NCBI RefSeq assembly: GCF_004010195.1
Contig: NC_057749.1
Location: forward strand, 8,573,423-8,637,422
Direction of reading: 5' to 3'
Origin: Chiloscyllium plagiosum
Lineage: Eukaryota
Length of the DNA stretch: 64,000 nucleotides
In this document: in pieces, positions 4,576 through 53,395 of the stretch
How positions within the stretch are numbered: position 1 is the stretch's first letter
Layout: each line of letters starts with the position of its first letter
Made by a program: the position numbers and the translations under genes
Notes under the pieces: model-generated
Databases searched by the model: none
Told to the model about the DNA's origin: nothing
What the model saw: the letters and a program-made list of their open reading frames with translations, nothing else

Positions 4576-4995
4576 NNNNNNNNNNNNNNNNNNNNNNNNN
4601 NNNNNNNNNNNNNNNNNNNNNNNNNNNNNNNNNNNNNNNNNNNNNNNNNNNNNNNNNNNNNNNNNNNNNNNNNNNNNNNNNNNNNNNNNNNNNNNNNNNN
4701 NNNNNNNNNNNNNNNNNNNNNNNNNNNNNNNNNNNNNNNNNNNNNNNNNNNNNNNNNNNNNNNNNNNNNNNNNNNNNNNNNNNNNNNNNNNNNNNNNNNN
4801 NNNNNNNNNNNNNNNNNNNNNNNNNNNNNNNNNNNNNNNNNNNNNNNNNNNNNNNNNNNNNNNNNNNNNNNNNNNNNNNNNNNNNNNNNNNNNNNNNNNN
4901 NNNNNNNNNNNNNNNNNNNNNNNNNNNNNNNNNNNNNNNNNNNNNNNNNNNNNNNNNNNNNNNNNNNNNNNNNNNNNNNNNNNNNNNNNNNNNNN
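4576..4995. other. Assembly gap (N run); a second short gap lies at 25862-25874
   Basis: Ns in the sequence. Confidence 0.99.
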
Positions 4996-6022: not shown

Positions 6023-6850
6023 CTAACCTCAGTCAGTGTGGGATTGAAGCCTGTTGGTGGCATGAACTCAAGATCACAAACCAGCATTCTGCCAACTGAG
6101 CTAACCCACTCAATGTACAAACAAGCACTGATCCATTTTCTCTCACCATTTGATGGGTCCCTGGCTTATTTTGTGTAGATATCAGACCCTGTAATACATA
6201 AGTACCAGGAGAAGGAATTGCCCATCTTGGGCCCTTAAGTCATTTGATAAAAGCTGGAAGATTTGATTGTGACCTTAAATCTACACAGAAGGGGGTGAAG
6301 GGTGGGCCATTAAATATTTTTAAGGCAGAGATAGATGGAGTTCTATTTGGCAAGGGAATTAATAGTTATTCGGGGTAGATGAGAATGTGGAATTTGAAAC
6401 ACAAACAGGCCAGCCATGATCCTATTGAATAGCAGAACAGGCTTGAGGGACAAAATGTTTGATTTCTGTTCCTATTTTCTATGATTGTAGTTCTCCGTGG
6501 TGTCCATGTGAACATTTAATCCCCTCAATCCCATGCCAATCGGTAAAGTGGGAAATCAGGTACTAAATACTTTTCTTGATAATAGGTTTATTCATAGAAA
6601 GCAGCATTACATGGCTCTGCTCGCTTCCTACCAACCTAGTGTCCCAGCATTCTCTCCTTCTGTTATTAGAAGCAGAGTTTCAGCCACCCACTGTAGGCCT
6701 TTTTTCACTATCCTCCTCCACCCCTATTCACTCCCTCCCAGAAACTCCCAAGGAGATCAGTGGCATCCTCACCAATGTCAAACCAATTTCCAGGTTTCGA
6801 TTGGTTATGTTTTTTCCCCCTCTTAATCAACCTGTTCAGAGATGTTATTA

Positions 6851-7052
6851 CAGTTAGTTATTCTATAACGCAATGGTTGTGTTCTTGTGCAACCCCATGT
6901 TATAGAAAAATCCTAAACTGTCGACGATGTAATCACATTACACCCAACACACGTTTTAAAAGTTCGCGCTCCAGAAACAGATTTCCCCAATTTGTCAATC
7001 ACATGACAGCGAATTTGCATTAACGAAACTTACACCATAGCAGAACGGCCTG
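6851..7052. mobile_element. Tc1/mariner-Tigger-type MITE (decayed) splitting a tRNA-derived SINE
   Basis: TA-CAG...CTG-TA ends. Homologous along its length to 49390-49571. Confidence 0.65.
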
Positions 7053-7723
7053 TACACACCTCTGGAGCAGATAGGACTTGAACCCAGACATGAACACTCC
7101 CAAATGACATTCTATGGAGAGATAACTGCATATTTCAAAGGTGTAAATTGACCAAGATTTCTTTGATTATAGCCTTCCCCACCCCCATAACAATCCTACT
7201 CCCCCCACCACCACCCCCACAGCCCCTGCCCCCACAAATAAAAATATAATTCTGTCTTACCAATAGTTCAGAGATGGATGAGAGGTTGCAGCTGACTCAG
7301 AGGTAAGGACACTACCATTGCACCAGAAGATCCCTCTAGCAACATTGCCTTCTGGGGTGGAAAGTAATCTTGTGTACAATGATATTGCGTTTATAAATGA
7401 ATTGGAGAACAGGATGCTTTTTACAGTTCATGTTTCTGCATTGTACATCTCCAAGACTGTATGACGTACTTGCGTGTAACGATCTCTCTCACACTGCAGT
7501 GCAGTCATCTCCCAGTGTTGGTTAAAGTGAGCTGTGATTACAAACTGCTCCTATTACAAGAATGTTTTGCAGTCTTTCAGTACAGCCAGCTCCGTTCGAA
7601 CCTGCACAGATGAGTGTCAGGATCACTTGCTTAAACTTGACCATGGATCCACAATGGGTTCCTGGTCAACACCCAAAAGGGAGCATCCGCTTGGCCAGGC
7701 AAGTAATCCGGAGGGACCCAGAT

Positions 7724-9105: not shown

Positions 9106-10149
9106 AAGATGTTATGACACACCACTGGAGCAGGTGCGACTGGAACTTGGGTCTCTTGGCTCAGAGGTAAGGGCACTACCAAAGCACTGTTATTCGCTCT
9201 ATGCCCCGTGGACAAATAGACTTTGGATGTCACTGGTTATGAAGAGCCTCTGCAGGGTAGCCTTACCTCTGTCCAAACTGACTGCGAAGATTATGTGAGC
9301 AAATTTCAGTGTCCCTCTGTGAATCCCCTACAAGGTATTCATTGTATCTTCATTCAGATTTATTTGAGTTTTCAGATAATGGAAACATTGTACCTCCCAA
9401 GTCACATTCTGTGGAGGGCTAACTGCATATTTCAAAAGTATGAAGTGATCACAATTTCTTTAATTCCAAACTCCCCCCAAGCACTAGCAATCCTACCAAC
9501 CCCCAACATAAGATATAATTCTGTTTTATCAATATCCCAGACTCTGACAGAAGGTTGCAGCCAACATTAATGTGGATTGGGAACAGTGGAATGCTTTTTT
9601 AAGCAGTTTACTTTTAAATATTTTCCTTCGTGCTGCTGAGAAATGTTTTAATAGTGGTGGATTGTCATGCCTTCCATCATTCCCCAGCTAGGCATAACTG
9701 GGTATTATTGTCTTCCTTATCTCCTGACTTCCAGGAGAAGCTGAGAGGTTTACATTACCTCTGGACTAAGCTTATCTAAACATTCCATCACTTATTATCA
9801 CTTTGCAATTCCCTCTTCAATTTTATACAAGCCATGATATAAACACTGTAGAAACTCACAAAAAAATCAATTCTACATTAGTATGACCAACCTCCATATC
9901 GAGAAATGATGACTCATAAAGCTGCTTTTAGGCTTAAACATGTTTAGCATTTCTGATTCCATATACACGAAGGCTCAAACAATTCAAAAACGAGGATCTG
10001 TCATGCTGAGGATGGCTATTTATTGCAATATTCATTCCCTCCTTACTGAGGTTTTTAAGCTTCATACAACCTCCAATAAAATGGGAAACTACAGGAAACT
10101 GCACTAAAATGGAAACTACTTCCATAATTGAAATCATGGAAGAAGGGGG

Positions 10150-16428: not shown

Positions 16429-18849
16429 AGGTACTGTAAGGAACTGATTATTCAGCACAGGGAAAACATTTTGTACATCCCAGAAACAGGTTATTCATCC
16501 CAATGTTTTGCTATGGCAGTTCTTACAGTCTACTTTTGAAAGGTAAATTTATACAGACTGAATAAAACTCTTCTGGACTATATGCAGCTCTAATTAATTA
16601 TCACAGAAAGTTGATATAGAATACACTTTAAGTCCAAATTGGAAAACTGTTTCTCACAGTATCCATGTGTAAATAGTCTTCTGTTCTTCATCAATGCTCC
16701 TGGTTTCCCCCACGGTAATGGAACCAGTGTCCTGAATTGCAAACCCCAAGCCCACTTGAGATTTGCACCTCCCACAGTTCCCAAAGCTGTCTTTATTTTT
16801 CATTCATGAAATGTGGACATCACTGGCTATGTCAGCATTTATTACCCATCCCCAAATGACAGTTAAGAGTCAGTCATATTACTGTGGGTTTTGAGTCACA
16901 TGTAGACCAGACCAGATAAGGATGACTAGTAAATCGGAGTGGTTTTTCCAACAATTGGCAGTGAATTCATGGACATTATTAAACTTTTAATTCCAGATTT
17001 TGTTATATGGAATTCAAATTCCACCATCTGCGGTGGCAGGATTTGTACCCAGGTCCCGAGACCATTATCTGGATTAACAGTCCAGCAATAATGTCACTAG
17101 GCCATCGTCTCCCCTTCTTTTCAAAGTTGTATTATCCAGTTTTTCAGCTTTGTGGAAGTGCAGTAGCTCTGAGGTGAGAGACGCTCTGAACTTTTTAATA
17201 AAAAAGAAAATGAAAAGACATGCAAACTGGAACAGAAATTATCATTACTGGGTTTTAATATCTACATCATGAAATAAAGTATAATTCTAAAAGCATAGAA
17301 AATAGGAACAGGAGTGGGCCATCTGGCCCTTCCAGTCTGTTCTATCCTTCAATACAATTATGGCTGATCATTCAACACAGTCCCCATACTCTCTGATTCA
17401 TTTAGCTCTTAGTCCTATATCTCGTTCCATCTTGAAAATATTAAATGTTTTGGCCTCAACTATTTTCTGGGGCAGAGAGTTCCACAGGCCCACTACTCTC
17501 GTGAGTGACAAAATTGCTCCTCATCACAGTCCTGAATGGCCTATCCTGTATCTTTAGACAAGAAACTAAAATCATTAAACATTCATCCTGAAGAACTGAT
17601 ACTTGAAGGAACTGACTGCACTCAAAACATTACAACTTCGGGACAATCTCATTCAGACCAGTTAACAAGACTATCTATGTTCAATGAGCCTTGCTGTTCG
17701 ATAAATGAGTTGTGTTTTTATAGCTTTAATTCATTATAGATCCTGATGGTTATACAATACGTAACTCTAAGGTTACTTACCAATCAAGTTAGAAGATTAT
17801 GTTTCAATTTGGCCACGTGACATATAATTCCCACATGGATGTAATTAACGTTTGTTCTTCTTGTGACTATACTTTGCATAGATGTGCACATCCACACACA
17901 TACTTACACACACATAAGCTCATCTTTACAGGCTCCACACTTACATATAGTTGAACACATATCTCACACCCATATACGTCTGCAATGCACACACACACAT
18001 AAACTCAACCTTTCACTCTTCTGTATATACAAAAATCAGATAATGCCCTCATCATTCTTATTGAGCATGCATTAATGATTTACTAACCCAGTGTAACCAT
18101 ATCAGGTTCTAATACCAAAACAACTGAAGTAACTGCCTGTAGAACAGGAGAATTTCTGCTCCCGATGCAACAGAAATTGGCACCCAAAAGCGCACTTTAA
18201 ATTGCACCCTTAGATTACATGTTGAGTTTATGTTCAAATGCATTTGCATTTATCATAATCACATGCAAATAGTGTAATAAGAGTGATTATTTTATGCTTT
18301 CCTTCCAATTAAATAATATTCCCTTGATGTACTTACAAATGCTAACCTGGTGCAGTTTTATTAAGACGTGAAATAGGATTCTCACAGAAAATAAGCATTT
18401 TGAAAAGGACATAAAACCAGCAGAAACATCTCTATGACTCCCTTTCCCAACCTGCTATCTTTACAGATGCAGGCAGCAATCAATACAGTTGAACATGGTA
18501 TCCCACCTCCCTCATGCTGATTAAGAATATAGCTGACTAAAAAGACTGGCCACTCTGAGCATGAACAATGCCCTCACGTTTGGCAAAAGTTAATGGTTGT
18601 GGTAAGTAATGCATCACTTCAGTAATATCTCTATTTCTAGACACTACTCAGCTCTTTGTCAGCTAGCAGACTGCAGCATGATAAATACAACATTTAGATC
18701 TCTAATTTCAATGGCAGTGAAAGGAAAATATTTGGCCTCTGTAAATAAACTCTACTAAATGGAATGATTAATACAAACATGATGAGCTCCAGTATTGAGA
18801 ATTGATGTGACTAAAAGAAAAAAAAATGAGAAAAACACTAAATATGCTA

Positions 18850-18855
18850 TTTATT
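18850..18855 (-). promoter_or_regulatory. Candidate polyadenylation signal AATAAA (distal)
   Basis: The minus strand reads TGTACAATAAATAGC, followed by a GT/T-rich tract (TTAGTGTTTTTCTCATTTTTTTTTC). Confidence 0.4.
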
Positions 18856-20144
18856 GTACATTAAGAGTGCTATATATTTATATATATATATATAGTTTGT
18901 ATTCAGAATGTCAGTCAATTCTTGCAGAGAAAATTATGCATAACAGATTTCCAAGAACACACAAATATGCATTTAAGCACATTATAGCACTAATTTCTCT
19001 CTGGATTACTAATTTCACTCATTTATTTGCTAAATATATTGGATCTGAAAATAAAAATGAGCACTACCAAACTTGCAGCTGGCGTCTGACCCTCTCCCAG
19101 ATGTAGTTTGTAAATGATCACTGAAGTTTCAAAATTGGCTGTGTCACAAGTGACTAAGGGCAAATTTATTGGCTCAGCTTGAGAAATGGCATCCCTGGGG
19201 CAATTGTATTCACAGCCAACCTCTTGTTTCCATGTCACTGGCTGCACACAAACATGACATGGTTCAGCCAAAGCGTTTGGGCGGCCGGTTTCGTGGAGAT
19301 CACCGTCGTCATTATCAAACCACTTGTTAAAGCAAAGCACTGCGAATGCTGGAGATCTGAAATAAAAGCCGTGAAAGGGCTGAAGAAACCCAGCAGGCCT
19401 GGCAGTGCCTGTGGAGAGAGAAACAGCGTTAACATTTCAAATCCTTACTTTGGAACTTAAGAGAGATAGAAAATGTGATTGGTTTTACACCATTGGAGAA
19501 AGGGGACAAGATCAGGGTAACACAAACAGAAAATTAGGGTCAGGTTAGAAGGCAGCACATATTAGTGACAAGTTCTCGTGAAACAAAAGCAATGGCAATG
19601 GTTGTAATTAAGGAACAAAGTATTGGTCCACTGTTAATGGAGTAGTAGCAGAAATAAAACACTACCATTAAAAGAGACTAATCTTGAAAAGAGAGCTTTT
19701 GTAGTTGCAAATAGATAGCAACATTAAAGAATTATGGATATATCATACACATGGGCACACCATTTGTCTGTACATCCATTGTAAATATCATGATTGTATG
19801 GTAACGTGCACTCAGGGCTTACTGATATCTGAGTTTGTATAGTGTACCGAGACTTATAAATATGCACACAAGCTTGCCGAATACAATCTAGAATGGAACT
19901 GCATAGAAATAGGGACAATTGGCATGTCGCATTCTTGCAGATTCGTTGAATGCACTGTCCAACTTATTCCCAGGCCTCAGTTTTCCCTATAAACCTGCCA
20001 ATTTGCACAAATGCATACCGTATTCACTTCCTTACCCTCTCCAGGGAGGGTCGCCTTCTCTATAACAGCGCAGATGGAATTAACCTCTAATAAAACAAGC
20101 AGAATTCAGTGAAACTCATTGCGTGCAATACAGTATTCTTCACT

Positions 20145-20150
20145 TTTATT
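20145..20150 (-). promoter_or_regulatory. Candidate polyadenylation signal AATAAA for RPP25 (proximal)
   Basis: The minus strand reads TTTTGTAAAATAAAAGTG (UGUA then AAUAAA) in non-repeat sequence about 2.2 kb downstream of the stop codon. Confidence 0.4.
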
Positions 20151-21375
20151 TTACAAAACGGTTTAACCAACAAGGGTATAAGGTGCTCCTTACTTAAGAG
20201 AAAGGCTACAATTCTAAAGATTTATCAGGAGAGCGTCCTACTCTGTTACATCCCTTGGCACTGATGCTTAAATGGTCAATAGCAGGATTTTGCTCATATA
20301 CTATATTCCACTTTGAAAACTCTGTAGGTTAAGATAAGAACCGGGTGTCAATTTAAGCTCAGTAATATCGAAAAGAGTCGAAGCTTTGCACTGTCAATGT
20401 TGACAACAATGTACAGAAGTCACGAGCTTTCCATAAATCCTTGCTCTATCACATTCTTATTTGAACACACAATCCTTCCGTTTTATAGTGGAGCAAATAA
20501 ATCTCTACAGACTGTTTTGAGTTCATTTGAAACAGCAGCCTCTATCTGCTGGGAGACAGGGGATAAACACACAGGCAGGTTTCTGAAAAGGGATAAAATT
20601 AAGCAAAGGACATCGCAGAAATCTCTCATTAAAAAAGGAGCTAATTACTTGAATTTGTACAGCAGCTGGGAGCAAGGAAAATCAAAAGAGGCAGCAATGG
20701 AGATTGATAAAACTCACAAACTCTAAGGAAGGGCACTCGATGGAAATTAAATGCAATTCTATTCTTTTTTTTTAACCCTTTTTACCCACATGGTGAGATT
20801 TGAGGAGGCAATGATAGAGCCTAGTTCCATTCTAAAATAAATTATTAATTAACAAGAGCTGGGCTTCCCTGTTTACTCGGAGTCACGTCCAAAGACATTA
20901 TGGAGAGACAAAGATAAAAATTAGAACACCCACCTTTCTGGTTAACCAAGCAAATTAAATTGAAAACAAAAACACTAAGAACTGCAGATGCTGGAAACAG
21001 AAAGGGCTAGAGAAACTCAGCAAGTCTGGTAGCATCTATGGAGAGAGAAACAGTTAATGTTTCAGGTCGAGTGACCCTTCTTCAGAACTGGACCGAATAC
21101 ATTTCTTGCTAAATCTCTTATCCAGTCTGTGATCTTTGGGAACTTTGCTTCCATGTGGATTTTGAAGTTGCAATAAAATTTCCCTTCTTAAATGTCCTTT
21201 TTTCATTATGTGTTCCAAAGACTTCATAATGTTCAGGGACTTAACAATGCATCTTTGTTGTAACATAACATACCCACACAGTAATACTTCTCTTTGTGCA
21301 TTTTACAAAGTGCTCTATAATTGTATAGATTTGTATGTGTATATAGACCTCTATATATAATTGATATTTTACATC

Positions 21376-22364
21376 AACCTCTGTTATGGCACATCTCTGG
21401 AGCAGGTGGGACTTGACTGGACCTCCTGGCCCAGCAGTAGGATCACTACCACTGTGCCACACTGAGCCCCTGCTGTAATTCCTATTCTATTTCAACCTGT
21501 TCGGAGATGGTATCACACACCTCTGGAGCAGGTGGGACTTGAATTCGAGCCACCCAGTCCATAGGTAGGGACACTACTACTGCACCAGACAGAAGAGGTT
21601 TTCTTGGCAAATTGATTTTCTTTACAACTTGTTCAGGAATGTTATGACACACACTCCCAGTCCAGCAATAGGGACATTACCACTATACCACAACAGGACC
21701 ATGATTGTAGTGATTTTCTTCTAACCTGTTTGGACATGGTATGATGTACACTCCCGGTCCAGGGCTGGATACACTACCAGTGTATCATGAGGACCCTCAT
21801 GGCAAAGTGATATTTTTTAATCTGTTCGGAGATGGTATAACCCACACTCTAGAACAACTTGAATCCAAGCCATCCAGTCCTGGGGTAGGTCCAGTACCAT
21901 TGCACCACAAGAGATCCCACAAAATGATTTTTTTAACCAGTTAAGACATGATGTAACACACTCCCAGTCCATGAGTGAGGATACTACCACTGTACCACAA
22001 GAGGACCCTCAGGGCAATTTCATTTTTAACCTGTTTAGAGATGTTATGACACACACTCCCAATCCAGCAATAGGGACACTACCACTGTACCACAAGAGGA
22101 ACCTCAGTGCTATATTTTTTAACCTGTTTAGAGATGTTACGACACACAGTCCCAGTCCATGAGTGGGGATACAAGCACTGTATCACACAGACCCTCAGGG
22201 CAATTTCATTTTTAACCTGTTTAGAGATGTTATGACACACACTCCCAGTCCAGAGGTGCGGATACTGTCATTGTACTACAAGAGGACCCTCAGTGATATA
22301 TTTTTTAACCTGTTTAGAGATGGTATGACACACTCCCCTGGTCCGGGGTAGGGACACTACCACT
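21376..22364 (-). repeat. Tandem array of 10 units (93-132 bp) derived from a tRNA-like SINE head, in the RPP25 3' flank/UTR
   Basis: Anchor AACCTGTT(T/C)AGAGATG..ACACAC..GGGACACTACCACTG recurs at about 21376, 21494, 21626, 21723, 21819, 21935, 22028, 22121, 22214 and 22307. Dispersed monomers of the same sequence occur at about 6828-7330 (split), 9108-9185, 47400-47485 and 52960-53015. Confidence 0.9.
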
Positions 22365-22384
22365 TGTGTCCTGCGGTCTGTGAG

Positions 22385-23038
22385 TTACTGCTGGGGGTTC
22401 AGGAGGTAAGTATAGTTGGGGAAGGGAGGGGTCTCACTGGGCTGTTCCCCTTTGCTGAGCTTCGGGACCATCTCGGGCGACGCTCCGCCGCCACTGTCGC
22501 TTCCCCGGCAGCGGCGCTTGACGCCCCGGCTGGCCGGGCTGAACCCTGGCTCCTCCTGCCCGGCCCGGGCAGCACCGGCGGCACCGGGCTCCGGCCACAG
22601 CGGGGGAGCGGAGTCCGGGGGCTGGTAGCCGGCTTCGGCGGGGTCCAGGGGCTCCTTGGACAGCAGGATGCAGACGGACGGAACGGTCTTGAGCAGGGTG
22701 AGGGCTGCCCCGCTGCCGGCGGTGCTGCTCTGCCAGGTCTCCCGCAGGCTCCTCGGGCGGAGCTTGGTGATCTGGTGCAACCCTCCCAGCCTGCGCTTCA
22801 TAATCTCGGCGCAGGTGATGGTCTTGGTGACCGCCCGGCCCGAACCGCTGAATACTATCCTCCGCGTGCCCTCCAGCTCCATGCGGGCCAGCGCGAAGCC
22901 CATCAGGTTGCGGATCTTGCTGCCCTCCTTCACCCGCATCTCCACCGTGTCCGCCGGCAGGTCAGCGAAAGGCAGCGGGCTCTCCTCCTCCGTCCGCCCG
23001 ATCTTCCGATAGTTCGCCATCTCGCCGCTCCCCTGCAT
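22385..23038 (-). CDS. RPP25: Ribonuclease P/MRP protein subunit p25 (Alba domain), single coding exon; the orthologous start may be the second ATG at 23020 (MANYRK)
   Basis: Intact 217-aa ORF containing PFADLP-MRVKEGSKIRNLM-IVFSGSGRA-TKTITCAEIMKRRL-GLHQITKL-LLSKEPLDP-GYQPP. By recollection these motifs fit vertebrate RPP25 (MRVKEGSKIRNLM, TKTVTCAEILKRRL) better than the paralogue RPP25L (MRVRDGSKIRNLL). The sequence is CpG-rich, and the second ATG has a good Kozak context (gcgagATGG). Confidence 0.9.
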   Translation of the reverse strand: MQGSGEMANYRKIGRTEEESPLPFADLPADTVEMRVKEGSKIRNLMGFALARMELEGTRRIVFSGSGRAVTKTITCAEIMKRRLGGLHQITKLRPRSLRETWQSSTAGSGAALTLLKTVPSVCILLSKEPLDPAEAGYQPPDSAPPLWPEPGAAGAARAGQEEPGFSPASRGVKRRCRGSDSGGGASPEMVPKLSKGEQPSETPPFPNYTYLLNPQQ

Positions 23039-23182
23039 CTCCCCTTTCCAAATGCAACCTCAAACGATGCACCAGCCCCCTGCCATATCACCCATACCAA
23101 ACCCCCAAAGCGTCCGCTCTTGTTCCCTCTTTTGGTTTGGAGTCAGTGCTGCAATAAAACCACCATCCGAAGTCCTTTTTTA

Positions 23183-23975
23183 TTTGCAAAAAAAAAATCT
23201 TTCCTTTGCAGCAATTTTCTTCTCTCGTTGTTCCTTCACAAAACCGGGCAGCGTACTTTCAATTTCCTCCTTTGCAAAAACGGAAGGGCATACTTGTCGG
23301 CGTTTTGCAAAACTAGGCAAGCTTGTTTGATTTTTCTTCTCTGCAAAAAGCTGACAGACTTTTATTTGCCGGTATTTTGCAGAACTGCAAGGCTGCTCCT
23401 TTTGCAAAACCGGGCAACTTCCTACTGTTTCCCTCCTGGGGAAAAGTCGCTGATGCTCTGCAAAGCTGCAAGGCTGTTGCTTTGCAAAACTGGGTAAAAG
23501 TCCTTACGGTTTTCCTCCTGCTGAAAAGGTGAAAGACTTTTTGGTGTTTTGCAAAACTGGGCGAGGTTGTTTCATTTTCCTCCTTTGCAAAATCTGACGG
23601 GTTTTGTCGTTCATGTTTTGCAAAACTGGGCAAAATTGTTCCTTTGCAAAACTGGGTAAAGTCCCATTTTCCTCTTGTGCAAAAGCTGGTTTTTTTTCTA
23701 TCGGTGTTTCGCAAAACTGGGTAGGGTTGTCTTATTTTCCTCCTTTGCAAAATTCAGCGAAGTCCTTTTATTTTCCTTCCTGTGCAAAAACTGACAAAAG
23801 CTCTTCCTTCACGTCGCTGTTTTTGCGAAACTGGGCAAAGTTGTTCCTCCGTCCCCGAGGCAGTCTTATCCTGTTCTTCTGCAAAACTGAGCGAAGTCGT
23901 TTTTCTCTGCACAATAAAAATTGGCAGTTTATTTTTGTCGTTGTTCTGCAAAGCTGGGCAACGTTTTCAAGCAAA
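23183..23975. repeat. Degenerate minisatellite-like array with a TTTGCAAA(ACTGGG) core, upstream of RPP25
   Basis: About 20-25 core variants (for example TTTGCAAA at 23183, 23271, 23304, 23401, 23481) separated by variable pyrimidine-rich spacers at a period of about 25-45 bp. Confidence 0.85.
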
Positions 23976-24714: not shown

Positions 24715-27005
24715 GAAACGCAGGAGGCTGAAGGGTGACCTTATACAGTTTTATAAAATAATGAGGGGCATGAATAGGGTGAATAGCCAAGGTCTTTCGC
24801 CCGGCATAGGGGCGTTCAAAATGAAAGGGCATATGAGAGGGAAAAGACATAAAAGGGACCAGAGGGGCAACTTTCTCACACAGAGGGTGGTGCGTGTACA
24901 GAATGACCTCCCAGAGGAAGTGACAGAGGCAGGTACAATTACAGCATTTAAAACACATTTGGATAGGTACACAAATAGGAAGGGCTTAGAGCAGGGGTGG
25001 GCAATTAATTCTTCCAAGGGGCCGCTTGAGAAACCTGAGTTGTGTTGGAGGGCCAAACCAACAATAAGTTGAACATATTTCTGCTCGGTATTAATTTTCT
25101 CCCATTGTAAAAAGTACTAAATTATATAGTTTTGCACTGAAACTTATAATCAAAAGAATAAGGATATTCTGTTACAATAAAGATATGAAATTGTGGAGTA
25201 GGTCAAATATAGAAGAAATAAACAGTAAAAACAATAATTTCAGTATTTCATTTTATTTTTAACATGTTAATCTCACAAACCAATAATGAAAAGTTGTTTC
25301 ATTATTGTTCAGTATTACAAACAACAAACAACTCTATACAAAAAGCAGTAAGTGCTTTTGATGTTTTTCAGTTCATTTTATTTGTTTAGTGAGAAAACTC
25401 CAGTCTGTTTTGGGCTTGAACAAGTGCACTGTAATCTGGTTGAATGTCTGAGGTGGATATGCGAAGTTCAGCTGAGAGGTGATCATCAGTGATAGAGGAT
25501 CTGTATTTGGATTTGTTGAACTTCATCACAGAATGTCTAGGTAGATCCAAAGAGGACTAGAATCTTCTGAGCATGCCTCCTTTTGTGGAAAGTTTTCCTC
25601 TTTGAGGGAAGAGTAAAAATCAAGCAGTGAGACTGACCTAAAGTACTCTGCCAGAAGTGTGTCAGACTGCAGGTCAATGAGTTCAAGCTGAACATCACTA
25701 GGTGCATTCTCACATTGCATGTAAATGGGTAAAAAATCATGTGCATTTCATTCTCAACCGTTTTAAAGTCTTGAAATCGCCTTAAAAGTTCACCATGCAG
25801 TGCCTCTAACATAGATGAGTACCTGTGGAGGTGATCAGCTGAAGGTGCGGCTTCCTTCAGTNNNNNNNNNNNNNAATCCAGTCTGCATCTGAAAGCTGTG
25901 GAATACCATTCCCTTTCTTCTCTCTGGTCCCATACACCTTTCAGCATGTTGCCCAGGCTGAGCCACCTGACAGCTGTGTGGTAGCCTATGTCACGATGTT
26001 CAGTCTCATTTTCCTCCAAAAATGCAACAAACTGCCTGTGATTCAAAGCTCTTGCCCTGCTGAAGTTAACAATTTTAGCTACAACATCAACCACATGGTT
26101 AATTTTTAACTGACTTACACAACATTTCCTGATGTATAATACAATGCAAAAATACCAATTTCTGTTCAGGGTCAATTTCTGAATTCTCTTTAAGAGTCCA
26201 ACATTTTTTCTGTTAGATTTGTACAACCATCCGTTGTCACACCCACCAGCTTGTCCCATTTTAGTCCCAACGTGTCCAAACATGCATTTACCTCCGTGAA
26301 CAAATCATTACCAGTTGTTGTTCCTTTCATTGACTGCATGGCTGCCAGCTCCTCCATGATTTTAAAGTCCGTAGTTGTCCCATGTACGAAGATGAGTAGC
26401 TGGGCTGTGTCACATACATTGCAGCTCTCATCCAAAGCCAAGGAAAAAAAGTCAAAGTTGACCGCTTTGTGCTGCAGCTGAAGCTCCAGAGATCTCGCGA
26501 TGCCCCCAATCCTTCTCGTTAGAGTGCTTTGGGAGAGGGGCACATTCTCAAATGCCTCCTTTTTCTCCGGGGATATTAGTTCTGCAGAGTCCAACAAGCG
26601 CTCCTTAATAAACTCTCTATCAGAAAATGGTTTACTGTTTCTGGCGATTTTATGGGATATGACATAACTTGTCTTGGCGTGAGCTGACACTTTGAGGGCT
26701 AGCCAGCAAGCATTACATTTAGCTGTTCACGCACGCGCATGTGCATCCACACATAAATAAAGAAAGCATCCTTTTCAAAACAAAAGCAACACAGTTGTAT
26801 TGCGTGCATGGCGTAAATACTTTTTCATTTATGTTCTAATTTAAGATTGACCTCATCCGGTTCGGACAGAACCGCGGGCCGTATCATGCCCAGGTCTGGT
26901 TTAGAGGGATATGGATCAAATGGGACTAGTTTAGGTTGGCAAACTTGGTCAGCATAGATCAGTTGGACCAAAGGGTCTGTTTCCGTGCTGTAAGACTCGA
27001 TGATT
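24715..27005 (+). mobile_element. CR1 LINE 3' end split by the hAT element (24715-24991 and 26899-27005)
   Basis: RRLKGDLIQFYKIMRG..FLTQRVV, with the tail resuming after the hAT TSD. Confidence 0.85.
24992..26898 (-). mobile_element. hAT-Charlie/Buster-type DNA transposon with a decayed transposase (GTF2IRD2-like domain), inserted in a CR1 3' end
   Basis: Termini CAGGGGTGGGCAA and (reverse complement) CAGACCTGGGCAT. 8-bp TSD GCTTAGAG (24984-24991) / GTTTAGAG (26899-26906). Frameshifted ORF pieces carry FSLALDES, VGVTTDG, HTAVRWLSLG and ILVLFGST. Confidence 0.9.
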
Positions 27006-46050: not shown

Positions 46051-48429
46051 TGACAAGTGAGAGTACCAAATCCATATCTTCCAGAGTTCACCTCATCTGG
46101 AATGCTGTTCAATGTATTCTCTTCAGAGAGGTAACACAATGCAGGAGGCTGATTTCAAAATGTCACTGCTATATTCCTCTTTGGGCACTCCAGACTGTAA
46201 AGCATGACTCTTTGATGTCTATCTGTTCTGTTAGAATACATGTTAGATTTCACGTTGAAGGTTAGATAAAACAACTCCGATTCCTGAGCATCCATTTTCT
46301 CCATCCACCTCTCACCAATTATTCCATTCCCACAGACTATCAAACCAATTACCACCATGACGCTTGGCAGTTCACTGATGGAACCTTATACTCCTGGAGG
46401 AAAAACAATCCACTGAGCTTCATAAGATGTTGTTAAGAAGCATTTTCCATGTATTCTGGGGAGGGAAGAGCTGGGGTGGAGGTCGGGGGTAGGGCAGTGA
46501 TGGGTGTTGTATCAGGTAATTGTTCTGTTCAACTGTGTTGAATGCTACACAATCTGATGTCTCATAGTCTGTGGACAGAGGAACAATTAGTCTTGCATGC
46601 TGTCCTGTTGGAAACAGAGGTGATATTTCTTACCTCTGATAGATGCCTAACTCATTAATGTTAATTATGCCTCTTGTCATCATACATTAAACTACGCCTT
46701 GATGATCTAGACAAAAAGTTAACAGGCGTTATACAGAGGTCTATCGTCTAATCGTGATAATTAGTCAAGCCCTTAGGGTAGAAAGGTGGATTTGGCCTTT
46801 AGGAAGCAGGGACTGAGGAGGATCATCATCCCAGGTAACGATATTCTGACAAGGTTCGGTTGAAATTTTATAAGTTCCCGTTGACCACTTGATTCTGTTT
46901 TTGTAACAGCCCCCCGACTGCTTTATTTGTTGCAGATTTTATTCATTTAAAAGAGTAGAAGGAAGAATTTAGGATTCATCATCATATCACCACTTTGTGA
47001 TATTTTCATCTGAATATTTCAGTTGAAATTTTACTTCTGCTACATTGTTCCTTCTGGCTGTAAAGGTGCTTTTTATCAGCTTGTCCATATTTGACCCATT
47101 TCTGGGGCAAATGGGATTCAAGCATGGGCTTCATGGCCTAGAGGTGGAGTCACAACCATTGAGTCTCAGGAGGCCTCTTAGAAGCTAATACGGTGTAGAT
47201 ATTGTAATCAATCTGCCCACTGGACTACTACTAGTAAGGCCACTACTAGTGTACCACAACACCATTAGGCGACATCAAGAGACTTCCAGTTGTCCCTGAG
47301 ATATAAGGTTTTAACCAGAGACCACGGTTGTTCAGTTGCTGTCTTGGAGCATCTATGTTAGTGGATGTAGCAGTCGTCCTTTCAGATATTCCGATAACAT
47401 TGGAGATGTTATAACACACCTCTGAAGCAGTTGGGACATGAGACCAGGTCTCCTGATCCAGAGGTAGAGACACCACAAGAGCTCCCTTAGGGGCTGTTGA
47501 TGCTAGCTTTGTTTACCTTCACCCCTTAATTATTTTGAAATAATATAAAACAAGGTTGGTGGCAGTTAACCATCTCAAATACAAGCCATTGGTGAAGATG
47601 ACTGTGGAATTGGGTCGGGGGATGGAGGAGTGGGGCAAACATGAAAGTGTTCTAGTCCCTCGTTCATTTGGAATGGAAAATGTGCTCACTGAGTGAAAGT
47701 TCCTGAGCTGTGCAATTTGCATTCATGCCAAATTACCATTTATTCTGAAAATGTGCATTTCAATCTATACTTAGCCCTCTTAACTTGATTACAGTCCAGT
47801 TCAATTAAAACAAAATCATCATTGAATTAATTGCTTCTGATGCGCATGGTTCTACAAATATTTGATAGCCCTTGAGGGGGGAGAGGGGGTTCCTCTTAAT
47901 TGGTAATGCCAATTAATTGAAGTTTCATAATGTCCTCTGGCTCAGCACTGATGTTTCTTCAGGCGTTTTGTGGGGACAAAAGAATTCAGAGAGTCATTGT
48001 TAGAATTCCAAGTGCATGTAAGATGTTATGTCACAAATTGAAAAGGGATTTTCAAGATGAGCAGCTTTCTGTATGTTTTCCACAGGGAAAATATTAAAAT
48101 TTTCACATTTTCTTGAAGACGATGTGAATCTGCAACTCAAACTGTCACTCTGTAGGATGCTCATTTTGATTTGTAGTTCCCTGAACCGTAATTCCTAACA
48201 GTAATGACTGCAAATTGGCAAAAAAAAGTAACATTGTCAGCAGATTGAAAATGGAAATATTCCAACGTTCCCTTCTGCAAAAGGTCACTCATTCCACAAG
48301 GGGTGAGTTAGCTGGACAGATGGTTTGGCAACACAAAGTGATATCAATCACATGGGTGCAATTCCTGACTAACTGAGGTTACTATGGAAGACTCTTCTCA
48401 GCCCTCACCTGAGGTGTGGTGGCCACCAG

Positions 48430-52244: not shown

Positions 52245-52936
52245 AATCCCTACAGTGTGGAAAGAGGCCCAACAAGTCCACACCGACCCTCCGAAGAGTA
52301 ACCCGCCCAGATCCATTTCCTCTATATTTACCAGGAGAAAGTGAGGACTGCAGATGCTGGAGATCAGAGCTGAAAATGTGTTGCTGGAAAAGCGCAGCAG
52401 GTCAGGCAGCATCTAAGGAGCAGGAGAATCGACGTTTCGGGCATGAGCCCTTCTTTAGGAATGGCTCTTCTTTAGGAATGGCTCATGCCCGAAACGTCGA
52501 TTCTCCTGCTCCTTGGATACTGCCTGACCTGCTGCGCTTTTCCAGCAACACATTTTCACCTCTATATTTACCTCTGACTAATGCACCTAACCCACACAAC
52601 ACTGAATACTGTGGGCAACTTAGATTAGAGATTAGATTAGATTACTTACAGTGTGGAAACAGGTCCTTCTGCCCAACAAGTCCACACCGACCCTCTGAAG
52701 AGCAACCCACCCAGACCCATTCCGCTACATTTACCCCTTCACATAAACAACGGGCAATTTAGCATGGCCAAATCACCTAACCTGCACATTTAGGAAACCA
52801 GAGCACCCTGAGGAAACCCACGCAGACACGGGAAGAATGTGCAAACTCCACACAGACAGTTGCCTGAGGCAGGAATTGAACCCGGGTCTCTGGCGTTGTG
52901 AGGCAGCAGTGCTGACCACTGTGCCGCCGTGCCACC
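52245..52936 (-). mobile_element. Two adjacent or nested HE1-like SINEs
   Basis: A tail fragment at 52245-52620 (containing the PLE insert) and a fuller copy at 52620-52936. Confidence 0.8.
52333..52558. mobile_element. Palindromic solo PLE terminal-repeat insertion inside a SINE
   Basis: 14-bp TSD CCTCTATATTTACC (52319-52332, 52559-52572). Two inverted arms, each with GCCCGAAACGTC. Confidence 0.85.
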
Positions 52937-53395
52937 CCAATTACCCAGCTCTGGAATTGTTGGGACTTGAACCGTGCCTGCTAGTTCAGAGGCAGGGATG
53001 TTATGACTGCACCACACGAGTCTTTATCCCTCCTCTGGGCAGACTGACTCAGCATCAGCAGCAACTGAAGTGGCATCCGTGATCTCGAGTCTTATAACTG
53101 TATATTCAGAACTGTTATAGAATCATAGTCATGCAGCACAGAAACAGACCCTTCAGTACAACCAGTCCAAGCCGAACATTATCCCAAACTAAACTAGTCC
53201 CATTTGCCTGCTCCTGGCCCATTTCCCTCCAAACATATCCTATTCAGTATCTATCCAAATATCTTTTAAACGTTGTAATTGTACCCATATCTACCACTTC
53301 ATTCCAAACGTGAACCACTCTCTGTGTAAAAAATGTGCCCCTCATGACTTTTTTAAATCTGTAATCTGTCTCCTCTCACTTTAAAATGTACCCCT

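Follow-up and report, generated by a model that had tools for sequence, protein, structure and literature searches.

Directly beyond the stop codon of RPP25, the gene for the p25 subunit of RNase P and RNase MRP, the minus strand of the stretch analysed in this work (the window, 64 kb of the Chiloscyllium plagiosum genome, C40:8573423-8637422) carries ten head-to-tail units derived from a short interspersed element (SINE) of tRNA origin. The question raised by this locus is whether tRNA-like words beside a gene for a tRNA-processing enzyme have a function there. The initial annotation had proposed that the array gives RNase P or the RPP25-RPP20 dimer a feedback handle on the mRNA, and it had named a neutral satellite as the alternative. 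It is the alternative that is favoured by the evidence: the units have no tRNA fold, they diverge at the rate of their flanks, and the same SINE has a tandem habit throughout the genome. We consider it most probable that the array is a neutral minisatellite, which arose from a SINE multimer and is carried in the long 3' untranslated region (UTR) of RPP25. The initial annotation is therefore partly supported; its descriptive part holds in the main, and its functional idea is unsupported.

Anatomy of the array and of its source SINE

The ten SINE-derived units in sense orientation just 3' of the RPP25 open reading frame (ORF) were confirmed by repeat finding and alignment (Table 1). The units are 90-128 nt long (n = 10), and a 27-nt core (repeat family D6) could be aligned across all ten, the starts lying 128, 103, 97, 120, 90, 95, 93, 93, and 92 nt apart. 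The array had been described as starting about 20 bp past the stop codon. This is right for the recognisable A-box-like part of unit 1, which begins ~20 nt beyond the TAA (22385-22387), but the weak leader homology of the same unit extends to 22381, only 3 nt beyond the stop codon. The gene itself had been named correctly as a member of the Alba family. The ORF contains a Pfam Alba domain (PF01918, E 3.5e-17) and matches the PDB chains named Ribonuclease P protein subunit p25 with E 6.6e-43 to 1.6e-42, including the human RNase P p25 chain 6ahr_F (E 1.2e-42), so the name RPP25 is, by these matches, right.

The source SINE is very short, ~113 nt, as seen from the comparison of copies in the window and in the 3.56-Gb genome to which the window belongs. 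It consists of a leader, the A-box-like TGGTGCAGTGG, ~30 nt, the B-box-like GGTTCAAGTCCCACCTGCTCCAGAGG, then GTGTAATAACATCTCTGAACAGGTTGATTAGAAAA and an A-rich end (TAGAAAA..., in some copies GGTTAAATAAAA). The motifs TGGTGCAGTGG ... GGTTCAAGTCC stand at tRNA spacing in dispersed copies and in three array units, the boxes being called against consensus sequences that we take as given. Of 40 scored genomic matches to a one-unit query, the starts fall near query position 2-7 and the ends near 109-117. A head with tRNA-spaced A-box-like and B-box-like motifs, together with many dispersed copies of defined length, marks the element as a SINE. The first look at the genome gave at least 1150-1459 copy candidates, and the family probably numbers at least thousands of copies. 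A literature text search with a 19-nt core of the SINE returned no match, and other literature searches did not lead to a family name for it.

The array units had been regarded as SINE heads. This view does not hold, because the 3' tail is included in each of them and they are whole SINE copies: each unit spans SINE positions 1 to ~47 and ~77 to 115, followed by a spacer of 10-25 nt. It had also been stated that most proximal units lost the T-arm and kept only their 5' half. The loss is real in seven of the ten units, which lack the B-box/T-arm segment; however, it was caused by an internal deletion of ~27 nt with identical boundaries in all seven, and the 3' tail is present. The B-box segment is kept in decayed form by the remaining three (21371-21470, 21471-21598, and 21799-21918). 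The two distal units, which had been likened to tRNA genes, do contain the box-like motifs (TGGCACAGTGG / TGGTGCAGTAG, then GTCAAGTCC / TTCAAGTCC). A third unit keeps the segment as well, and none of the three folds as a tRNA. The B-box-like motifs of the array are degenerate (GTCAAGTCC, GAATTCAAGTCC, TTCAAGTTG).

In the proximal part of the array, Tandem Repeats Finder (TRF) reported a period of 93 with 78% matches and a period of 186 with 88% matches. The shared deletion and this 186-bp two-unit period indicate that most of the array grew in place. Pairwise identity among the units is only 70-87%, thus even the latest duplication in the array is old. The spacers resemble one another (7.64 vs 5.55 for shuffled spacers, sd 1.27). 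Compared with the outer flanks, they gave no signal of flanks like target-site duplications (downstream 7.0 vs 6.68 for shuffles, upstream 4.67 vs 4.68).

Table 1. Features of the RPP25 locus and SINE copies in the window (all on the minus strand)
Feature	Position	Strand	Basis or detail
Array of ten units in tandem, each with one copy of the tRNA-derived SINE and a spacer	21371..22381	minus	Repeat finding, TRF, MAFFT alignment
Unit 10 (most distal), 100 nt	21371..21470	minus	A-box-like TGGCACAGTGG, degenerate B-box segment GTCAAGTCC, tail truncated
Unit 9, 128 nt, full-length SINE copy	21471..21598	minus	TGGTGCAGTAG and TTCAAGTCC
Unit 8, short form without B-box segment	21599..21701	minus	Alignment, folding
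Unit 7, short form without B-box segment	21702..21798	minus	Alignment, folding
Unit 6, 120 nt	21799..21918	minus	Decayed B-box segment TTCAAGTTG; ATTAAA at 21816-21821
Units 5 to 1, short form, 90-95 nt	21919-22008, 22009-22103, 22104-22196, 22197-22289, 22290-22381	minus	186-bp two-unit higher-order period
RPP25 (RNase P/MRP p25) coding sequence	22385..23038	minus	217 aa, single open frame, ORF list
Remainder of probable 3' UTR (downstream end approximate)	18600..21370	minus	Tiling by contigs of X1, X3, and X5, with steps in depth
Piece of another, highly abundant dispersed repeat, within the probable UTR	21006..21090	minus	Depth spike of 484 / 3890 / 3865 in bin 20992-21178, many loose ends at 21006-21089
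Dispersed single SINE copy	9107..9187	minus	blastn of array units against window, alignment
Further dispersed SINE copies	47402-47476, 52940-53017	minus	blastn of array units against window
Three partial SINE copies, same orientation, within 500 bp	6827-7327	minus	blastn of array units against window

Every SINE copy that was detected in the window lies on the minus strand. The first of the three partial copies in 6827-7327 (from ~7298-7327 onward) resembles another short form without the B-box segment. The copy at 52940-53017 adjoins a copy of a different, longer tRNA-related SINE on the minus strand (52780-52940), which has a conserved core (...GGAGTTTGCACATTCT...GGGTTTCCTC...) and presumably resembles the Deu-type SINE cores. 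On the other side of the gene, a short way before the RPP25 start codon, there is an 81-bp tandem repeat (23378-23528, 1.9 copies, 78% matches). A second Alba/RPP25-like open frame of 191 aa, with 49% identity to the protein of the window, was found at G000:C1:46284862-46285374 (+), and it is probably the RPP25L paralogue.

Structure of the units and their place in the transcript

In the feedback idea, RNase P would recognise the tRNA-like units of the transcript, or the RPP25-RPP20 dimer would bind them, and the amount of enzyme would feed back on the RPP25 mRNA, which could be cleaved or sequestered or could release small RNAs. However, the array units are not tRNA-like in structure. ARAGORN found no tRNA in the whole 64-kb window and none in the array at the default setting, ps95, ps90 or ps85; at ps80 it made one call in the array, on the opposite strand and without an amino-acid type. 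Scoring with a tRNA covariance model and folding of the units had both been suggested in the initial annotation. The Rfam models gave no match in the window at gathering thresholds (the cut-offs are 29 bits for tRNA, RF00005, and 42.5 bits for mascRNA-menRNA, RF01684). With E up to 10, no tRNA, mascRNA-menRNA, RNase P or RNase MRP family matched within 21250-22450, where only two unrelated weak matches appeared, snoU82P (in the coding region) and bxd_7. Among 12 other SINE-bearing loci, one dispersed copy (L021:1648-1710) reached 20.3 bits with the tRNA model and 21.2 bits (E 5.9) with the mascRNA-menRNA model, both below threshold. The tRNA ancestry of the family is thus faintly visible elsewhere and not in the array.

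Folding led to the same result. No cloverleaf was seen in the minimum-free-energy folds of the ten units, and the z-scores of single units against dinucleotide shuffles were 0.04, -0.60, 0.46, -2.15, -0.41, 1.52, -0.02, 0.23, 0.17, and -0.49, with nine of the ten between -0.60 and +1.52. The three units that keep the B-box segment were also inspected for stems, the tRNA numbering being anchored on the A-box-like and T-loop-like motifs. They form 1-3 of the 5 pairs of the T stem and 0-5 of the 7 pairs of the acceptor stem: unit 21371-21470 has 2/5 and 1/7, respectively, unit 21471-21598 has 1/5 and 0/7 (3/5 and 1/7 with the other anchor), and unit 21799-21918 has 2/5 and 5/7. An acceptor stem stacked on a T stem-loop occurs in none of these three, and the other seven units have no T-arm segment. 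Like mascRNA of MALAT1 and menRNA of NEAT1 (RF01684), which are tRNA-like RNase P substrates in Pol II transcripts, the array is a tRNA-related sequence in sense orientation within the 3' portion of what is probably a Pol II transcript. It differs in that its units match neither RF01684 nor RF00005 (E up to 10) and lack the helix of acceptor plus T-arm.

No sequencing run listed for the stretch is recorded as RNA, and the raw RNA run of the source species (X20, single-cell polyA) gave 0 reads on it, so that neither bears on transcription or processing. The presence of the array in the mRNA was judged from contig sets of three related organisms (X1, X3, and X5), whose library type was guessed to be RNA. 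The contigs tile the stretch at ~94-97% identity and run from the coding sequence through the array and ~2.5-3 kb beyond. In X1 the depth is ~29-32 over 18595-23600 and 3.6-4.5 below 18560. In X3 it is 93-192 over 18947-23600 and 0-10 below. In X5 it is 17 from 18297, then 44-59, then 23-26 over the coding sequence, and falls to 6 and then 0 above 23049-23236. Such steps argue for RNA rather than genomic DNA. X1 contig 7 (22293-23598) bridges the stop codon into unit 1, X1 contig 5 (1074 nt) covers 21052-22121 with 28 differences and 4 gaps, and X1 contig 4 carries on to 18595; an X3 contig covers 20717-22052 and an X5 contig 21006-22012. The array is thereby co-assembled with the coding sequence in contigs that resemble transcriptomes, which agrees with the claim that it is part of the mRNA as far as the guessed library type allows. 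Past 23598, the X1 and X3 contigs extend ~800 nt at unchanged depth, and the X5 coverage ends near 23092-23235.

Among the 15 joints listed of 50 in these contigs, none removes the whole array. Joints inside the array that skip forward or go back were considered as splicing and rejected; their depths are unlike the local depth and mostly foreign letters stand between the two sides, so they were read as other SINE loci or assembly forks. One X3 joint, from 22305 back to 21956 (350 nt), may reflect extra proximal 93-bp units in that organism. The AATAAA hexamers on the minus strand are at 20145 (20145-20150), 19165, 19022, 18850, and 18357, and the first one is well downstream of the array. From these data, RPP25 probably has a 3' UTR of ~3.5-4 kb with the array in its first kilobase, although the contigs show neither strand nor transcript ends. 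Besides the abundant repeat fragment in Table 1, a second depth spike at ~19309-19495 (to ~400), again with many loose ends, points to a fragment of another abundant repeat in the probable RPP25 3' UTR.

The same contigs bear on the possibility that the array is an assembly artefact, in which SINE copies were collapsed or mis-joined. Repeats are hard to assemble, and the window does contain N gaps elsewhere (4576-4995 and 25862-25874). On the other hand, the independent contigs of X1, X3, and X5 are collinear with the array, with the X1 contig just mentioned crossing from the stop codon into unit 1, and an artefact is thus extremely improbable.

Moreover, the B-box-bearing units could be seen as independent Pol III units or TFIIIC sites, giving small RNAs or a chromatin boundary beside RPP25. 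The SINEs derived from tRNA are transcribed by Pol III, and three units have both the A-box-like and the B-box-like motif. Their B-box-like motifs are degenerate, though, and absent from the seven other units. Furthermore, contig depth is the same in the array as in the UTR on either side, if one sets aside the spikes that dispersed copies account for. This role is very unlikely.

As the initial annotation had suggested looking for, the array is present in the relatives, in all three, but it diverges about as fast as its flanks. The differences in X1 are 28/1070 in the array vs 67/2487 in the flanks. In X5 they are 17/538 and 21/498 vs 61/1625, and in X3 they are 74/1336 in the array contig (including 650 nt of flank) vs 63/1771. 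By comparing the array units with dispersed copies, the conservation of the A-box block is 0.82 vs 0.89, and that of the tail blocks is 0.79-0.86 vs 0.91-0.96. There is no sign of constraint on the array, because its divergence is close to that of the flanks and the conservation of its units is equal to or below that of dispersed copies.

This last comparison also concerns a regulatory module of another kind, in which repeated sites for RNA-binding proteins, miRNAs or anti-SINE piRNAs would tune the stability, translation or localisation of the RPP25 mRNA. It would be consistent with ten sense repeats that probably lie in the UTR and are kept in relatives, and with the A-box block and the tail block being the best-kept parts of the units. 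But the same blocks are the best kept, and better kept, in the dispersed copies, and the array has the divergence of its flanks. In addition, the copies found in the window are all on the minus strand, so that none of them is an inverted partner for double-stranded RNA, and no specific factor can be named. We regard such a module as unlikely.

The balance for recognition by RNase P is less favourable still. The sense orientation, the start at the RPP25 stop codon, the probable location within the transcript, the three units with both box-like motifs, the weak sub-threshold scores of the L021 copy, and the retention in three relatives are all in its favour. Against these stand the absence of any unit from the matches to the tRNA, mascRNA-menRNA, RNase P and MRP models even at E = 10, the negative ARAGORN runs, folds that are no better than shuffles, and the T-arm segment missing from 7/10 units. 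To these are added the lack of excess conservation over flanks or dispersed copies and the tandem runs of the same SINE at many unrelated loci, considered below. A literature search, screened without full texts, found nothing among the papers listed that links the RPP25 UTR to tRNA-like elements. Every check proposed for the feedback handle that was run came out negative, and we consider the handle highly improbable.

Tandem habit of the SINE family

The SINE had been thought to be arrayed only at RPP25. Within the window this is so, since the other copies are dispersed or fragmentary, but tandem runs exist elsewhere in the genome, and frequently, at loci unrelated to RPP25. The array is in this respect not special. 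A two-unit query gave 40 non-self genomic matches, 17 of which cover both units, and all nine loci fetched from this search hold 2-6 copies in the same orientation with spacings of 125-200 bp. A two-unit query favours dimers, therefore the search was repeated with one unit. A second copy in the same orientation then started within 250 bp at 9 of the 29 best-scoring other loci, and an inverted neighbour at one; with one copy every 15 kb, the chance of at least 9/29 would be ~7e-10. Arrays of full units comprise five units at L044 and L048, four at L056 and L062, and six in two clusters at L009. An exact search for a three-motif pattern gave 11 matches vs 6 for the reversed control; it was too strict for counting arrays and pointed to four loci.

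Other forms of the element were also met. At L059 (G000:C18, ~5572144-5572755; locus coordinates 1498-2109) there is an array of 13 x 47 nt with 82% matches, covering SINE positions ~14-61. It is a true SINE-head minisatellite, made of the part from A box to B box, unlike the RPP25 array. The single copy at L047 has an independent deletion similar to that of the short form. At L003:2666-2759, a near-perfect hairpin of ~90 nt reached 58.6 bits with the mir-627 model (cut-off 86) and was also matched, on both strands, by several further models of miRNA precursors; this is probably no miRNA but a palindromic repeat.

How the multimers arise was considered from the spacers at L002-L010, L014, L016, L021, L022, L028, L030, L031, L036, L039, L044, L048, L056, and L062. 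In 12 clean multimers, the local score of the spacer against the upstream flank was 7.75, vs 5.16 for the flanks of other loci as a control (Mann-Whitney p 1e-5), and against the sequence downstream of the last unit it was 7.19 (p 0.017). The multimers therefore have the pattern flank-SINE-flank-SINE-flank, in which the spacers look like target-site duplications. Such a pattern would be expected if the element had inserted more than once at a single target site, or if unequal exchange had taken place between the duplications. Unit identity within a locus (0.787, n = 42) is not above that between loci (0.792, n = 2958), so that duplication in situ and double insertion are not separated by these data. 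Later local duplications are seen as pairs with an identity of 0.93 at L056 and 0.86-0.87 at L044, L048, and L058.

The RPP25 array fits a known kind of sequence, the SINE-derived tandem array, as it consists of head-to-tail SINE-derived units amplified in place. It is not a satellite proper with long homogenised arrays at many loci; the short-form array is at a single locus, and its units are 70-87% alike. SINE-derived satellites (sSats) were described in squamate reptiles, and their likely starts were given as unequal recombination or insertion into the same locus (Vassetzky, Kosushkin and Ryskov, 2023; PMC10702118). According to that paper, their occurrence outside squamates is uncertain. 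The likeness lies in tandem units from tRNA-related SINEs, in near-full-length units at one end of the array, in an alternating two-unit pattern in some arrays, and in the same proposed origin by duplication or repeated insertion with subsequent amplification. The differences are that the RPP25 unit is a whole SINE plus spacer, with an internal deletion in 7/10, whereas the sSat unit is a sub-segment of a SINE; that the RPP25 short form is at one locus, whereas sSats are at many homogenised, subtelomeric loci; that the RPP25 array has 10 units against up to ~1000; and that it lies in a probable 3' UTR. The same source cites the Dip SINE of the Gobi jerboa, in which nearly half of the copies are in multimers, with tandems up to eight. 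The family studied here is alike, in what is cited of Dip, in having a large share of copies head to tail (9/29 sampled loci, with runs of 4-6). A double-insertion model for the birth of satellites from transposable elements was proposed by McGurk and Barbash (2018; PMC5932611). In the genomic multimers studied here, flank-like spacers and a within-locus identity not above the between-locus value fit repeated insertion at one site; however, the same data fit duplication soon after insertion, and the RPP25 array itself clearly grew in place.

Origin and meaning of the RPP25 array

We hypothesize that the neutral minisatellite arose in the following steps. At the start, a tRNA-derived SINE of ~113 nt would have been present shortly after the RPP25 stop codon, probably as a head-to-tail multimer already, as many copies of the family are. 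A loss of ~27 nt including the B box may then have occurred in one unit, and unequal exchange or slippage during replication would have amplified this short unit locally. Finally, a 186-bp two-unit block was presumably duplicated, after which the units would have drifted to their present identity. The array would be transcribed passively within the mRNA, with no tRNA-like fold and no specific targeting by RNase P or RPP25. What was observed directly is how the array is built, the deletion common to seven units, the 186-bp period, the lost tRNA features, the tandem habit of the family across the genome, and the retention in relatives at the rate of the flanks; the order of events, the exchange mechanism, and the neutrality are what these observations make likely.

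Several points weigh against a neutral minisatellite. The array is old and was kept in all three relatives, and the case for neutrality rests on coarse difference counts per contig. It is the largest full-unit array seen (10 units vs at most 6 elsewhere), and a three-unit short-form query, for which all 31 candidates were scored, found no second short-form array in the genome. The tandem fraction is an estimate, the 29 loci being the best-scoring copies and not a random draw. A random 100-kb sample of the genome held one full SINE copy and one 17-nt fragment, thus the true density may be below 1 per 15 kb. As to structure, the fold of the short unit 21599-21701 is more stable than expected from shuffling (z -2.15, equalled by 7 of 200 shuffles), and unit 21471-21598 forms a long irregular hairpin with the B-box segment at its tip (z -0.60).

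Moreover, the analyses make only a cleavage-type recognition unlikely. The distal units 21371-21598, or the whole array, might then be bound, and not necessarily cleaved, by the RNase P holoenzyme or the RPP25-RPP20 dimer. If this were true, binding would couple the fate of the RPP25 mRNA to the free pool of enzyme subunits, as an autoregulatory loop from a domesticated SINE multimer. No analysis supports such binding, and we hold it to be as improbable as recognition of the units by the enzyme. Finally, the sense orientation and the start at the stop codon of a gene for a tRNA-processing enzyme are a striking coincidence. It is probably less striking than it appears, because there are thousands of copies, about a third of the sampled ones are in multimers, and many genes are linked to tRNA biology.

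A feedback element on an RNase P subunit would be remarkable if it were true. With the neutral minisatellite as the favoured reading, the lesson for annotation is that tRNA-like words in a UTR beside a tRNA-processing gene can be a coincidence. A modest interest remains in the SINE family itself, which is very short (~113 nt), has about a third of its sampled copies in multimers with flank-repeating spacers, and has seeded minisatellites of up to 10-13 units. It would offer a clean case for weighing repeated insertion at one nick site against unequal exchange as the start of an array. It would also extend SINE multimers and SINE-derived tandem arrays, so far known mainly from squamates and a rodent, to another vertebrate lineage.

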